NCBI GenBank assembly: GCA_000004985.1 | Contig: GG738854.1 | Source: Naegleria gruberi | Lineage: Eukaryota | Strand: one strand, 5' to 3' | DNA length: 64,000 bases | Program-made: the position numbers and the translations under genes | Part shown: positions 10,986 to 48,853 of the stretch, piece by piece | How the letters are laid out: each line of letters opens with the position of its first letter | Position numbering within the stretch: position 1 is the first letter of the stretch | Notes under the pieces: generated by a model | Databases searched by the model: none | Told to the model about the DNA's origin: nothing | The model's input: only the letters and a program-made list of their open reading frames with translations

Positions 10986-11529
10986 GTTGTTTGTGTTCGG
11001 TCTTTGTTCTTTGTATTTTGGAAAAAGAGGTGACAGTATTCCAGTGTTTACTACAAAGGTGTTGTGTTCTTTTTTCTGTTGAAATGAAGAAGTGATGTGG
11101 TCTGCTCTTTCGTAATGTTGAGAAACAGAAATAGCAAATTCTGCAATTCTCGAAGTTGACTGGATATTTTGGGAAGTGTTTGGTTAGACTTGGAAGAATC
11201 TGTCACAATATTGATATTGAGCAAGGTGGTGGGTTATCTATTGAATGTTAATAAACTCAAGATGATTCGGCTGGTATTTAAACTCAATATTTAATTTTAA
11301 AAAATGTCAAAAGTGTTCATAAAATGTTAGACTTGTCATTTCATAGGAGCTTTCAATGACATCCTTAAACAGCTAGACATTCCATATTTATTTTTTTGAG
11401 AATTTTGAATTCTCATTGTTATTTCATCATCTACAGCCTTTAACTAATACTTCCAGAACAGTATTTATTAATACAATTGATTTATTCAATATAGTATTAA
11501 TTTTTTTAATTATTGCAAATTTAAAAAAA

Positions 11530-12488
11530 ATGAATGAAAATGAATCGAGCCAATTTGATGAAATTCAAGTATTGCAATCAATGTACACTACCGAAGAATT
11601 AAAACCTCGGACGGGAATGGATAGATGTTGGCTCATTCCGATAAATGTTAATAATAATATTGATGATGATGAAACGACAGGATTGTTGGATTGTTTGGTT
11701 TTTGAATTTTGGTTTCATAGAAATTATCCTTCTGAATCGGAACCATTCTTTGAATTGAAAGGAGCTAAAAATTGGATTAATTTACCATATAATCAATTTA
11801 AGAATAATAACTATTTTGCTCAATCGGGATTGGATGAATTGGATAAAATTACTATAAAGGAGGCTCTGCAGATGGAGTTAAAGGCCATGTTCTCTCTTGG
11901 AGTACCAATTGCTTTTACTTGGATTGAGTTTTTGAGAAATGATTTATCGAACATGTTGGACGTAAATGAGATTTATAATCATGTTAAATTGAATCAAAAG
12001 GTTGTATCAATTCAACCAAATTCAAGAAAGTCTAACGAGGATAAAATCTCAACAAGGGTATTGGATATTATTCATGGGGAATCATTCACAGAAAAGAAAT
12101 CCAAATTTGTTGGACATGTGGCAATTGTAAAATCTTTGGAAGATGTCAACTTGATGCTGTCTCAATTATTGGAAGATGATAAAGTGGCAAATGCTACTCA
12201 CAACATTTATGCATATAGAATACGGCAAGGTGATCAAATTTTGGAAAATAGAGATGACGATGGAGAGACTGGAGCTGCTGATCAAATTCTTTATCTGATG
12301 CAAATCTCCAATGCAGAGAATGTATGCTGTGTGGTGACAAGATGGTATGGTGGTATAAAATTGGGAGCAGATAGATTCAGAGTAAGTAGTTCATTTCTAA
12401 TTGTTCATTGAACTAGGTTATCCATGATGAAACAATGAAAATTGAAATAGATCATTACAAACGTTGCCAAAAAAGTACTGCAGGATAA
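11530..12488 (+). CDS. IMPACT: IMPACT/Yih1 family protein (RWD domain + IMPACT/UPF0029 domain), 2 exons (11530-12381, 12417-12488; 35-nt intron)
   Basis: DEIQVLQSMY (RWD start); KSKFVGHVAIV...ATHNIYAYRI...DDDGETGAADQILYLMQI...VCCVVTRWYGGIKLGADRFR matches the IMPACT family signature. Confidence 0.8.
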
Positions 12489-12628
12489 TAACTTTATTGC
12501 TACGAGAAAGTAATCATTTCCATTGCAGCAATCGAAACATTTTGATTTCTTCTAGATTTCATCAAGATAATGATTTTGATCTTTTCAATTTCCCGCCTTT
12601 TTTTATTTGTTTTTAACTTGAATAAAAA

Positions 12629-13489
12629 ATGAGTCAAAGCCCACCTTCTGTTACATCCTCTATTGAAAACCAATTTTTGGATGACCAAATCTTTATCGGA
12701 GTCAGTGGTATGATTGGTTCAGGTGAGTATAATATCAATTTCGTCTGTTGTTTAACAATAATTTAATTAATAATAGGAAAGGTAAATATTTAGCCTATTT
12801 TTGTAAATTCATAAAATCAATATTCTTTAGACCACTCTCGCTAAAGCACTCGCTGAAAAGATTGGAGTTGGAGTACATTATGAACCAGTTATTGATAATT
12901 CCTACTTGGCTGATTTTTATTCTGATATGAAGACTTATTCTTTCCGTTTGCAAGTTTATTTGTTGAATAAGAGATTCGAACAACACCAGAAAATTATTTG
13001 GGGATCAAATGGAGGAGTTCAAGATAGAACTATCTATGAAGATGCTATCTTTGCCAAGGTTTTGATGGATACTGGAATGATGGAAAAGAGAGATTATGAA
13101 ACCTATGTTTCCCTTTTCAGAAACATGTCGAAGGTATGTTGTTATTGTGGTGATTTTTAATGAAGCCTTTTATGTTAAAATAGTTTATGAAACACAATAC
13201 AATGATTATTCACTTGGATGTTTCTCCAGAAACAAGCATGGAAAGAATCAAGATGAGAGGAAGAGAATGTGAAAGTGGAATTACTCTCGAATATCTTCAA
13301 AAGTTGCATAGTGGATATGAAGAATGGCTCACCAAGATTTCAAAGATTATTCCAGTTATTAAGGTTAATTGGAGTCAATTCAGAAGTCTTGAAAATGTTT
13401 TGGAAGAAGTTATGAAAGCCTATAATCAAATTCAAAATATTCAACATGTTACTTTTGAAAATAAGGATACCAGCAGTACAGTTCTCTAA
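12629..13489 (+). CDS. Deoxynucleoside kinase (dCK/dGK/TK2 family), 4 exons: 12629-12722, 12777-12781 (5-nt microexon), 12831-13133, 13184-13489
   Basis: The P-loop GMIGSGKTTLAKALAE is only reconstructed if the 5-nt exon GAAAG (between a GTGAGT..AATAG intron and a GTAAAT..CTTTAG intron) is included. Later motifs are DRTIYEDAIFAKV and LDVSPETSMERIKMRGRECESGITLEYLQKLH. Exon lengths sum to 708 nt in frame. Confidence 0.8.
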
Positions 13490-13660: not shown

Positions 13661-14792
13661 TTACACATTTTCAATCCCTCCAACTTTAGCTGATTCACTT
13701 TCTAATAATTGTTGCCAAGAAATACTAAGAACAACCATTCCTCTCGTCACAACTGGTTCTGTTTTGGCCAAATCTTTCAGCTCATCAATCATCATTACTA
13801 ATTCTTGAGCTACCTCATTATTTTCACTTCGTCTTTCTTCGTCAGCCAAAAACTTTATACAATAAATAAAATCGTCCACTGCCAGGATGTCATCTTCGTT
13901 CTGGTGGTGAATTGTCACAGAGCCCGAGCAACAAAAAAGTGATAAGGCATTCTCTAGTACTGTAAACAATGAATGGGCTGTAAGGGTGATGCAATAAATA
14001 ATGAATTTGTTGTACTCAATTGCAGATTCATTCTCCATAGACCTAGACTTTTCAATAAGAACTTCCAATATTTTTGGTTGTATGGCAACCCTATTTCCAA
14101 GAATTGTTTTAAGTCTGTCAATATTGACTAATCCATTTGGTTGAAGGATTCTGGTCTTTAAAACTAGATCATACATCTGAGAGACACTTTCCAGAGTTAA
14201 CCAATCTTTACTTCTTTCCCCATAGTCTATTGATTGAGATTAGAATTTTGAACATGAATAAATACAAACCCTTTTCTTCTTCCTCAAAGAACTTAATGGC
14301 AATTTTTATGGATTCCAAATCAAGGGGGGAGTTGGCATCAATCTTACGTTTCAATCTATCCCTAATCATTACTTTTCCTAATTTTTTAATTACTGACTGA
14401 AGGGCTGTTGTTATTTGTTGACTTGTTTCCTTATCTACTCCACTCAGAGTAGACCTGCTCGAAAGATTTGATGAAGGTCTCGATGTTTCCGAGCTGTTTG
14501 TACGATCCCTATACGAAGATAAAGGACGAGTATCTTCGTCATAGGCATGGTCAAACCTTACTTGTCTCCTCTCACTCATCCTACTACTTGAACGTAAAAC
14601 ACTCTCCCTATTTGTTGTTTCCTCTTCATCCTCAACACTATTTGTTTCAAATTCATCACCACTCATCCCAAGCCTAGTAAATTTATTTCTCTTCTCTCCT
14701 TCTCCATCTTCCTCAATATTAAATTCATTATTATTCTCTTCGCCATATTCTCCATCAGAGAGTTCATCCATATCCACACTTTCTCGAATCAT
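13661..14792 (-). CDS. Hypothetical protein(s): acidic/Ser-rich N-terminal ORF (14792-14208) followed by a 171-aa ORF (14176-13661); possibly one gene
   Basis: Two adjacent same-strand ORFs 31 nt apart. The first is Glu/Asp/Ser-rich low complexity. No recognisable domain. The junction could not be resolved by eye. Confidence 0.35.
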
Positions 14793-14930: not shown

Positions 14931-16042
14931 TTATTGCTCAGCAGATTCATCTTCCACTTGCTCACCTTGATTCTCTTGATGTTTCCTCTTTCGTTTTGGA
15001 ATGATTTTTTCAAGAGCTTGACCCCAAATTTCAAAATTAGTGAGCTCTGGTTTGGTTTGTTTCAATTCGATACAATCAGCAATGATTTCTACACATTGGT
15101 TGGTGGTCAGAACACTACATGCCTTCATGTCAATGTGCTTATCGAGTGGGAATTTAGCTGTTGGAATGTTATATTCTTTGGTGGCAATTTCATTACACAG
15201 ATTCTTGTGTCTGTTTCTATCAATAATACCTCCACTATTATTTTGTAATGAATATTTAAATTGTAAAATTTGAAAACTTACATTACATAGACATGTCCTT
15301 TTTCAAATTCTGTAATTTCATTCTCAGCATCAGCAGAAAGATAAATCACCTTATTTTCCTTCAATTTGTCCTCAAATTCCTTTGTAAAATGTTGATCTGT
15401 TAATTTCATCATCCACTTTTCAGGAAATCCTTCAAATTTCTTTAAACTATTGTATAATTCACCTTGTAAGGATGTAAATGTCATATAGAAAGGATTCTCC
15501 ATTCTCTTATAGGCAGCATAGCATTTTCCAAGTTGTTGAGCCAATGAAATAACTTCATTATTTGTCATCTTATCATTAAAGGAACAATCCACATTTATGC
15601 AAACATTGCAATCATTGGTTATTCCATTTTCTGTGGCTTGTTTCAACTTGTTGATGAGGTTCTCCTTTTTCATTCTTTGTGAACGAATTCTTTCTTCCTT
15701 CTTCTTTTTATTTTCTTCCACCAATTTTTCAAATTCCTCTGGAGCCAATTCGTCTCTCATCTTGGTGAAAAAATCATCACTATTCTTTTTCTTTTGTTCT
15801 TGTTTAACTTCCTTTTTTTGCTTTTTATGTTTCTTGAAATTATTCTTCCTGGTTTCCCATCTTTCCTTTCTCTTTTGCAATTTTTCATCCTTTGATGGTT
15901 TGTTTTCCGAATTTTCAGAAGTGTCATTACTGGCTTCCGATGGTGGTAATGTTATATTATTTTCTGCCATTGTTGATTGTTCCGATTTTTGTTCTTGCTC
16001 GACAAAATTTGATGAATTTCCTTCTGTTTGATGTTCAGTCAT
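14931..16042 (-). CDS. TRM10: tRNA (guanine9-N1)-methyltransferase Trm10/TRMT10 (SPOUT), 2 exons (16042-15282, 15234-14931; 47-nt intron)
   Basis: Lys-rich N-terminus, then VCINVDCSFNDKMT...FYMTFTSL... Across the GTAAGT...AATAG intron this continues ..HVYVIGGIIDRNRHKNL.. (matches TRMT10 VYIIGGLVDHNHHKG). Exon lengths 761 and 304 nt sum in frame. Confidence 0.85.
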
Positions 16043-29733: not shown

Positions 29734-31021
29734 TTACTTTTCTGGTTTTGGTGATTCTAAATTTCTGAGGAACTCTTCCTCTTTGCTTGAAGGTGGACAA
29801 ATAGAATTATTCAATGTGACAAAATCACCTTGATTATACAAACTCACTACAACAAACCAATTTCCATCAGCAAGTTCTTTTGTTAGACCATCAAAAGCAA
29901 CACCCATACTTCTTCCATTTCTGAAATATTCAACATAACCTAATGCTGTGTTTATATAAATACCAATTCTGTCACCTCTTTCACAACGTTCTCCATAATC
30001 CACTTGAGTCTTTTTTGAATACTTTTTCATTGACCAAACATTATATCCGTATGAGTTGGCAATAAATCCAACAGTCCATGAATCATTACTATTATTTTGG
30101 TTTGAAGTTTGTAAGAAAAATTCAACTAAATACATACAAATATGATGTTTTTTGTTTGCTGATACCAATTACAATATTGAAATTCTTAGTACTCTCAATT
30201 GTTACTTCATAATAATTCTTAATGTGGTATTTCAGTAATTTCATATTTCCGTAATATGTTGACAATTTTGAAGCTGTTATTTGTAATTCGTCTATTCTTT
30301 CATTTTCGAATGGTTTGTAAGATCCTACGGATGGTGATGTAATTTCTGGTCCAAGATAATTATTACCATCAGCACCAGCAACTTTGAGAATGTAATTATT
30401 ACTTGATGGAAACCCATTCACTTCCTCACTATCAGCAAAACATTCTTCCTCGATCTCTGGTTTTTCATCCAAATAACTCCAATCATCCATTTCAGAAGGT
30501 TGAGAGGACGAATAGTCCATAGCAATAATTGGATACCTTGCTGATACACTGTACCAATTCTTTCCAGTAGATTCCTTGCATATTAAGGTTTTTCCTCCAT
30601 CCACAACTACAACATTTGGGTGGCAGTTTGCCATTTGGAATCTCTTCTTTAAAAGCCACTTTTGAACAGTAAAGTAATCCACCAATTCTGTTAATCCATA
30701 ATATGATGCTTCCAATTGAACAGCCTTGGCAGTTACTGGTTGATACTTTACAGAAGGCAACATTGTAAGTGATAAATTACCTCCATTTCTCAAGTAATTC
30801 AAAAGGAAATGAAAATATGTTCCATCCCGATCAATAAATATATTTCCATCTCTATCTCGATCAACAGGGTGTCTTCCATTTGTCATTGAAGCCAACACAT
30901 GTTCCAGGTCATTCTTTCCAACCTGTTGAGTCAATGTAAATCTACTCGTAGTAAATAATTTACCACCCACATTCAATGTAATAACAGAAGGTTCCGACAA
31001 ATCAGCCGATAACAAGGACAT
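29734..31021 (-). CDS. BTB (KCTD/T1-type) + SPRY domain protein, 2 exons (31021-30138, 30088-29734; 49-nt intron GTATGT..AATAATAG)
   Basis: T1/BTB_2 region ITLNVGGKLFTTSRFTL...DRDGTYFHFLLNYLRNG. SPRY region after the intron: NDSWTVGFIANSYG...GDRIGIYINTALGYVEYFRNGRSMGVAF...WFVVVSLYNQGDFVTL. The in-frame ATG is at 31021 (the ORF-track start is upstream). Confidence 0.75.
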
Positions 31022-47046: not shown

Positions 47047-47166
47047 ACAAAAAAGACTACAACACCACAGGTTCCCAAGTTGTCTCCAACCTCAGTACTG
47101 ATGTGGCTCGACGATGCTTAACTTCTCAAATCGGACGGGATGAGGTGCATTCATCGTGATATGGCC
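47047..47166 (-). rRNA. 5S ribosomal RNA gene, copy 1 (120 nt)
   Basis: Reverse complement reads AUGGCUACGGCCAUAUCACGAUGAAUGCACCUCAUCCCGUCCGAUUUGAGAAGUUAAGCAUCGUCGAGCCACAUCAGUACUGAGGUUGGAGACAACUUGGGAACCUGUGGUGUUGUAGUC. This is the canonical 5S helix I-V layout with box A (AAGUUAAGCA). It is followed by a T5-6 Pol III terminator. TATA-like TTTATATATTA lies ~25 nt upstream. Confidence 0.9.
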
Positions 47167-47442
47167 GTAGCCATCAATAATCTAAATTTCTAATATATAA
47201 ATCTAGTATAGGGTGAGTAAAAGTTGTTCACAAAAATTCAATTATTATTAAGGATTATTAAGACGAAAAGCCTGCCAGGAATATGGCGACGATCCCGCTG
47301 CAGTCTTTGACTGTATGAACATTGTTCAATGTGAATTCAAGAGTTCTTGGTTGATCAGCCCTATATTTATTCACAATTAGACCTGTTGAATCGCTTGACT
47401 GTTTTTCTCCAGAAAGCTGAATTCAGCATTTACAACAAATAA

Positions 47443-48728: not shown

Positions 48729-48733
48729 AAAAA
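48729..48733 (-). terminator. Pol III oligo-T terminator of 5S copy 2
   Basis: AAAAA on the plus strand immediately 3' of the gene. Confidence 0.6.
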
Positions 48734-48853
48734 GACTACAGCACCACAGGTTCCCAAGTTGTCTCCAACCTCAGTACTGATGTGGCTCGACGATGCTTAA
48801 CTTCTCAAATCGGACGGGATGAGGTGCATTCATCGTGATATGGCCGTAGCCAT
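48734..48853 (-). rRNA. 5S ribosomal RNA gene, copy 2 (120 nt; one substitution relative to copy 1, A/G at 47054 vs 48741)
   Basis: Same 120-nt sequence as copy 1 except one base; followed by a T5 run; GATATAAT upstream. Confidence 0.9.

Follow-up and report, generated by a model that had tools for sequence, protein, structure and literature searches.

How can a gene encode a catalytic loop whose codons are interrupted by 108 nt of apparently intervening sequence? The question is raised by a kinase gene of Naegleria gruberi on contig GG738854.1 (assembly GCA_000004985.1), within the 64,000-nt stretch of DNA that we analyzed as a whole (hereafter the window), which is ~33% G+C and contains eukaryotic genes with short introns. 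We propose that the P-loop of this kinase would be split over three exons, the middle one being the 5-nt GAAAG, and from comparative sequence we put the probability that GAAAG is a genuine spliced exon of a P-loop so encoded at roughly 90%.

A single splice path yields the Walker A motif

The gene lies on the plus strand, and its first exon (12629..12722) extends from the ATG to a splice donor, coding for MSQSPPSVTSSIENQFLDDQIFIGVSGMIGS and supplying the initial G of the Walker A Gly codon; its 3' end reads ...GGT ATG ATT GGT TCA G (12722), with GTGAGT directly after. The 108 nt between exons 1 and 3 consist of a 54-nt GT...AG unit (intron 1, 12723..12776, phase 1, GTGAGT...AATAATAG), the GAAAG microexon (12777..12781) and a 49-nt GT...AG unit (intron 2, 12782..12830, phase 0, GTAAAT...TTCTTTAG). 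The flanks of the microexon are canonical, with AG directly 5' and GT directly 3' (AATAATAG/GAAAG/GTAAAT; here and below, slashes within splice-site sequences mark exon boundaries). Exon 3 (12831..13133) opens with ACC ACT CTC GCT AAA GCA CTC GCT GAA and codes for the core of the dNK domain (TTLAKALAEK...FRNMSK); a further intron (intron 3, 13134..13183, 50 nt, phase 0, GTATGT...AAAATAG) separates it from exon 4 (13184..13489), which codes for FMKHNTMIIHLDV...TSSTVL, includes the Arg-rich, LID-like stretch RIKMRGRECE and closes with the stop codon TAA at 13487-13489. A preliminary description of this DNA had placed a 5-nt exon between two short introns, and its coordinates and sequences for all three proved exact. 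Its statement that this exon splits the codon of the catalytic Lys was wrong: the codon split by intron 1 is that of the preceding Gly (G/GA), of which the microexon supplies bases 2-3, while the Lys codon (AAG) of the Walker A motif, GxxGxGK(T/S), lies wholly within the microexon, and intron 2 follows directly after it.

Joining 12629-12722, 12777-12781, 12831-13133 and 13184-13489 creates an open frame of 235 codons, for a 235-aa protein with GMIGSGKTTLAKALAE. With the microexon spliced in, the protein reads ...GVSGMIGSGKTTLAKALAE... across the junctions and has the Walker A sequence GMIGSGKTT, which is found in the microexon-containing product only. Skipping the microexon gives ...GMIGSDHSR followed by a stop, four codons past the junction, consistent with the earlier claim that the frame breaks and the Gly-Lys pair is lost without it; retention of either intron also meets a stop within a few codons, that of intron 2 giving ...SGKVNI and a stop, and unspliced RNA would be translated as ...SGEYNINFVCCLTII, ending ...CCLTII before a stop. 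We enumerated all GT-AG paths with at most two introns, each intron being at least 25 nt long: exactly one N. gruberi path, that through the microexon, produces G..G.GK[ST], and the microexon path is likewise the sole GT-AG path to a Walker A motif in N. fowleri and N. lovaniensis. The proposal that this motif can be assembled only by way of the 5-nt exon therefore holds in all three species.

The spliced product resembles deoxyribonucleoside kinases

The gene had been called a deoxynucleoside kinase from the letters alone, and profile and structure searches bear this out. The spliced product matched the Pfam dNK profile (PF01712) with an E-value of 9.5e-51 and 172.9 bits (cut-off 27), over profile positions 1-200 of 203. 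The nearest solved structure was 8PUU (E 3.7e-76), the deoxyadenosine kinase of Giardia intestinalis (PMC11662666), which is colinear with the Naegleria protein over residues 18-227 and aligns without gaps through the exon junctions. Within this span lie the P-loop, the DR(S/T)IYED motif, where QDRTIYED pairs with QDRSIYED of 8PUU, and the Arg-rich LID stretch, where RIKMRGRECE pairs with RIKERSRNCE. Giardia genes are essentially intron-free, and the comparison is one of proteins alone. The gene is a predicted non-TK1-type deoxyribonucleoside kinase, closest to the Giardia deoxyadenosine kinase; 'deoxyadenosine kinase' is a label carried by its homologues only, and the activity and substrate preference of the N. 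gruberi enzyme are putative.

The best homology matches came from Naegleria fowleri (82%) and Willaertia magna (78%). The motif G..G.GK[ST] is present in 120 of the 124 homologues retrieved, and every full-length homologue retains GK. Of the four that did not match the motif, two are the N. fowleri and N. gruberi models, which have no P-loop, one is a W. magna model that starts at the internal Met of MIGAGKS, and one is a GLIAAGKTT variant.

The microexon is identical in three Naegleria species

Intron positions in orthologues, which the preliminary description had named as a check on its claim, agree with it: N. gruberi, N. fowleri and N. lovaniensis share an identical AG/GAAAG/GT, placed at the same codon in each. 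The N. fowleri microexon, GAAAG with AG before and GT after, is located at 3157-3161 of L001 (VFQX01000063.1), where the DNA reads ...ATT GGC TCA G/gtatgg...(65 nt)...ataaaag/GAAAG/gttggt...(136 nt)...ttggtag/ACC ACT CTT. That of N. lovaniensis, with the same flanking dinucleotides, is located at 3152-3156 of L003, within ...TCA G/gtatgt...(60 nt)...atacag/GAAAG/gttggt...(45 nt)...gattag/ACC ACT CTT.

The introns on either side of the microexon have diverged to near-random similarity and vary in length. Intron 1 measures 54 nt in N. gruberi, 65 nt in N. fowleri and 60 nt in N. lovaniensis, and its between-species identity is 0.60-0.68 as compared to 0.56-0.58 in shuffled controls; intron 2 measures 49, 136 and 45 nt in the same order, cannot be aligned, and has a between-species identity of 0.30-0.51 as compared to 0.27-0.52 in shuffled controls. 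Exon identity among the three species is 76-95%; over its whole length the N. gruberi protein shares 82% identity with the N. lovaniensis orthologue, and the frame is undisrupted. The protein sequence of exon 1 is kept in N. fowleri, N. lovaniensis and Willaertia (SSIENQFLNDQIFIG.SGMIG). Within the last 21 coding bases of exon 1, N. gruberi differs from N. fowleri and N. lovaniensis at three bases, all of them synonymous third positions (GTC/GTG, GGT/GGA, GGT/GGC); since the differences are synonymous only, these 21 nt are coding.

A metagenome scan for heterolobosean orthologues returned 16 loci, 15 of them distant (32-47% identity) and uninformative. One locus, L020 (contig Ga0124853_1033966, 380-480), is Naegleria-like, with ~72% DNA identity and many 1-base deletions. 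It has the same two-intron layout, with the same exon 1 donor and a second short intron, and its LID region is interrupted by an additional intron not present in N. gruberi. The microexon region of this locus reads AAAG-CAAG-GTATGT and is too error-ridden to be read with confidence; it may represent AG/GCAAG/GT with one G lost, a synonymous Gly variant, and we do not rely on it.

Chance occurrence and the character of the flanking introns

The pattern AG-GNAAR-GT stands for any completion of the Gly codon plus a Lys codon, placed between splice dinucleotides. AGGNAARGT is expected ~3.8 times in 128 kb (both strands), or ~3e-5 per position. When the 108-nt stretch of N. gruberi was shuffled in 100,000 trials, a usable AG/GNAAR/GT (leaving both introns at least 25 nt long) arose in 0.10% of them; by species, the frequencies in shuffles were 0.1% for N. 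gruberi, 0.3% for N. fowleri and 0.7% for N. lovaniensis. Chance is thus an unlikely source of the pattern.

A crude scan of the 64-kb window for short GT-AG units that join open frames identified 18 candidate introns, with a median length of 49 nt, an interquartile range of 45-65 nt and AT-rich 3' ends. The AATAATAG acceptor of intron 1 recurs in two of these candidates, at 30089-30137 and 15235-15281. For N. lovaniensis, a median intron length of 80 bp has been published (PMC6125883). By these measures, lengths of 54 and 49 nt are typical, and the AT-rich acceptors of introns 1 and 2 also match those of the candidates. Most candidates have GTAAGT or GTATGT donors, and those of intron 2 (GTAAAT in N. 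gruberi; GTTGGT in the other two species) are weaker. A search for a branch-point motif in the 18 candidates revealed no clear consensus past AT-richness.

Folding of the N. gruberi, N. fowleri and N. lovaniensis sequences revealed no conserved RNA structure that would bring the splice sites together, the z-scores being -0.34 for N. gruberi and -0.39 for N. fowleri. Intron 1 of N. lovaniensis (L003 3092-3151) contains a strong inverted repeat, GUUGAAUAUAUUC...GAAUAUAUUCAAU, with a z-score of -3.08. We rejected a hairpin in intron 1 as a common aid to splicing: it occurs in N. lovaniensis only and is absent from N. gruberi and N. fowleri.

Two of three public Naegleria gene models miss the microexon

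The public models of this gene differ exactly where the microexon lies. The N. gruberi reference protein (XP_002680197.1 / EFC47453.1, 'predicted protein, partial') has 202 residues that correspond exactly to exons 3 and 4; it begins at 12831, the first base after intron 2, and has neither a start codon nor a P-loop. Its 'partial' label is what a gene caller gives out when a 5-nt exon cannot be bridged. The N. fowleri protein (XP_044557784.1 / KAF0973071.1) reads ...NDQVFIG/TTLAKALAE..., with the nine residues VSGMIGSGK missing: in this model (L001 3001-4024), a GGA/GTGAGT donor 21 nt upstream (3070) is joined to the exon 3 acceptor (3298). Corrected to include the microexon, the N. fowleri protein would read MMKQDILSSSIDNQFLNDQVFIGVSGMIGSGKTTLAKALAEK.... 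By contrast with these two models, which miss the microexon, the N. lovaniensis protein (C9374_008210; XP_044545833.1 / KAG2378571.1) reads ...GVSGMIGSGKTTLAKALAE..., with GMIGSGKTT present, and, the microexon path being the only one to Walker A, the annotated model therefore contains the 5-nt exon. The cluster of the N. fowleri protein at 90% also includes N. gruberi and N. lovaniensis entries.

How much weight does the N. lovaniensis model carry? That genome was annotated with BRAKER1 and RNA-seq (PMC6125883), and the N. fowleri genome by the same approach (PMC6831594). The N. fowleri model nevertheless skips the P-loop, which shows that prediction guided by RNA-seq can miss the microexon. 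We regard the N. lovaniensis model as supportive of the microexon and not as proof, and a minor isoform without the P-loop is possible in N. fowleri. Neither the exact spliced protein nor the guessed protein without the P-loop was present in a collection of 15 billion proteins, homology searches returned no transcriptome-derived Naegleria copy, and a homology search with the N-terminal 74 aa gave a single match, unrelated, at 43% identity.

Competing readings of the locus

Three other readings of the locus have to be weighed. In one, the main mRNA would use a cryptic donor within exon 1, GGA/GTCAGT (12701), together with the acceptor at 12830, removing VSGMIGSGK in frame and leaving a catalytically dead, dNK-like protein without its P-loop. 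In N. gruberi this path (12701 to 12831) keeps an open, uninterrupted frame, N. fowleri and N. lovaniensis have equivalents of it, and the N. fowleri model XP_044557784.1, a product of RNA-seq-guided BRAKER1, has precisely this structure. We nonetheless judge it very improbable: the 21 nt that it would treat as intron show nothing but synonymous third-position differences, whereas the true introns have diverged to random level; it would give no reason for the conservation of the 9-nt AG/GAAAG/GT; GK is kept in every full-length homologue; the GTCAGT of N. gruberi is a weaker donor than the GTGAGT at 12723; and the path stays in frame merely by arithmetic (22 + 5 = 27 nt) and owing to a Val codon that starts with GT. 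Still harder to credit is that the upstream ORF (12629-12722) lies outside the gene, which would then be truncated or decaying and lack a P-loop. That the N. gruberi reference XP_002680197.1 is marked partial and starts at 12831 fits such a view, but this label is expected of a caller that fails to bridge 5 nt, and the protein-level conservation of exon 1 as far as Willaertia, together with the intact frame and 82% identity to the N. lovaniensis orthologue, argues against it. We rejected the pseudogene, cryptic-donor and 5'-truncation readings on these grounds of conservation.

The last of the three accepts the microexon as real and supposes that it is alternatively included, such that skipping leads to a premature stop and acts as a post-transcriptional on/off control of kinase production. 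Skipping does run into a stop, four codons beyond the junction, intron 2 has sub-optimal donors (GTAAAT, GTTGGT), and competition between flanking introns, with retention or skipping, has been described for plant microexons (PMC8831610). Against this, the flanking introns look like ordinary Naegleria introns, and no conserved intronic element or structure was found among the three Naegleria species; we consider regulated inclusion improbable, and it is in any case an addition to the best explanation and not a replacement for it. The paths predict distinct junctions in the mRNA: inclusion would give ATGATTGGTTCAG-GAAAG-ACCACTCTCGC (junction k-mer ATGATTGGTTCAGGAAAGACCACTCTCGC), skipping TTCAG-ACCAC (junction k-mer ATGATTGGTTCAGACCACTCTCGC), and use of the cryptic donor at 12701 ATCGGA-ACCACT (junction k-mer TTTATCGGAACCACTCTCGC).

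Proposed stepwise removal of the two flanking introns

In the reading that we prefer, that of a genuine microexon, the major spliceosome would take out the two ordinary short introns (GT-AG; 54 and 49 nt) that flank GAAAG, and the joining of ...GGT TCA G, GA AAG and ACC ACT... would produce GMIGS-GK-TTLAKALAE. An exon of 5 nt leaves no room for spliceosomes on both flanking introns at once; with splice sites 5 nt apart that could not be occupied simultaneously, introns 1 and 2 would therefore be removed one after the other. The first removal, in either order, would fuse GAAAG to an exon of normal size, and the fusion would then serve as the exon for the second reaction. We infer this sequence of events from what is generally known of how spliceosomes assemble and from arguments made for plant microexons (PMC8831610). 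The microexon is probably constitutive: when it is skipped, the reading frame runs into a stop and the catalytic Lys is lost.

Outgroups and the origin of the microexon

Both copies of the gene in Willaertia magna (L002 3001-3060; L004 3163-3225) have one phase-1 intron, in the Gly codon of MIG; it sits 6 nt upstream of Naegleria intron 1, in the same phase, and is followed by an uninterrupted GCT GGA AAG TCA. The W. magna model KAL9655451.1, whose first residue is the internal Met of MIGAGK, is probably truncated at its 5' end relative to KAL9643583.1. In Paratrimastix the gene has introns elsewhere and a P-loop without an intron, and in Eukaryota sp. GEM-RC1 it is intronless. Among the gene loci compared, the microexon was thus absent from Willaertia, Paratrimastix and Eukaryota sp. 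GEM-RC1, and it is restricted to Naegleria or to a clade only slightly wider. As Willaertia lacks it and has just one intron, 6 nt upstream, the microexon appears to have arisen within or just before the genus Naegleria; Naegleria intron 1 may descend from the Willaertia intron by a 6-nt shift or may have been gained independently.

A more far-reaching scenario, which we offer tentatively and think unlikely as a whole, is that the microexon would be a recent, genus-specific invention made after the split from Willaertia, through intron gain or shift inside the P-loop codons, with obligatory, ordered two-step splicing and possibly with regulated skipping that leads to a premature stop and turns the kinase off. 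If true, the locus would provide a compact natural system, of three exons with introns of ~50 nt, for how an intron-defined spliceosome copes with a 5-nt exon and for the birth of microexons.

Known parallels and consequences for annotation

One parallel is the same gene in N. lovaniensis (C9374_008210), in which the GAAAG exon and its codon position are the same and the species and the intron sequences differ. In land plants, 2,398 exons of 1-15 nt have been described, mostly unannotated and often within core motifs (Yu et al., 2022, PMC8831610), among them a cluster of 5-nt phase-1 microexons in Peptidase M1 genes (PMC8831610). The Naegleria exon resembles these in size class (down to 5 nt in phase 1), in its canonical AG and GT flanks, in forming part of a core motif, in being conserved between species, and in belonging to a kind of exon that reference annotations routinely miss or mis-model. 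It differs from them in that it is heterolobosean, belongs to another gene family, has very short flanking introns (45-136 nt), is conserved within one genus as far as compared, and is known from sequence alone.

Smaller exons still are on record, namely the single-nucleotide exons of Arabidopsis APC11 (PMC4674806) and Fusarium CYP621A (PMC12940212). Like the probably constitutive Naegleria microexon, these are constitutive exons far below the presumed size for recognition that were discovered by way of a conserved protein that needs them; unlike it, they are 1 nt long, and that of APC11 has been validated experimentally, whereas the 5-nt Naegleria exon is backed by comparison among species.

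Recursive splice sites are zero-length exons, of the form AG/GTAAGT. They share with the Naegleria arrangement a 3' splice site that lies almost against a 5' splice site inside an apparently longer intron, and stepwise removal; in Naegleria, however, 5 nt lie between AG and GT that would have to be retained in the mRNA. We rejected a recursive splice site at this locus: a zero-length junction would break the frame.

Among the searched publications that mention Naegleria together with microexon or micro-exon, none concerned this dNK feature. The microexon is already implicit in one public gene model, that of N. lovaniensis, exons this small are rare but already on record as a kind, and no new mechanism is involved. 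Its consequences are nearer to hand: in both N. gruberi and the pathogen N. fowleri, the reference protein is without the ATP-binding loop of a nucleoside-salvage kinase, and uncorrected models of this kind would mislead predictions of activity, structural work and ideas for nucleoside-analogue drugs, in that the enzyme looks dead or incomplete. Corrected models would restore a normal dNK, of 235 aa in N. gruberi. The case would also bring a heterolobosean entry to the few known exons of at most 5 nt that code for catalytic residues, and an exon restricted to one genus would bear on the origin of microexons while leaving knowledge of splicing unchanged.

Neighboring genes in the window

The upstream neighbor of the kinase gene, on the plus strand at 11416-12490, is an IMPACT/YIH1-like gene with RWD and UPF0029 domains (E 4e-10 and 5e-28, respectively). 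One short intron interrupts it near 12382-12450, and ~140 nt separate its end from the start codon of the kinase gene. The 5' neighbors in N. fowleri and N. lovaniensis (F-box-like, WEMBL/GAS), read by eye, look different from that of N. gruberi, and synteny on the 5' side may not be conserved. Downstream, two adjacent ORFs of 171 and 194 aa without a Pfam match occupy 13661-14792 on the minus strand; they are probably two exons of one gene, and, going by position only, they may correspond to the domain-less 332/314-aa gene that follows the kinase gene in N. fowleri and N. lovaniensis. ARAGORN detected no tRNA genes in the 64-kb window. Two full-length 5S rRNA genes (Rfam RF00001; 102.8 and 105.4 bits) lie on its minus strand, ~1.7 kb apart, at 47054-47172 and 48733-48851.
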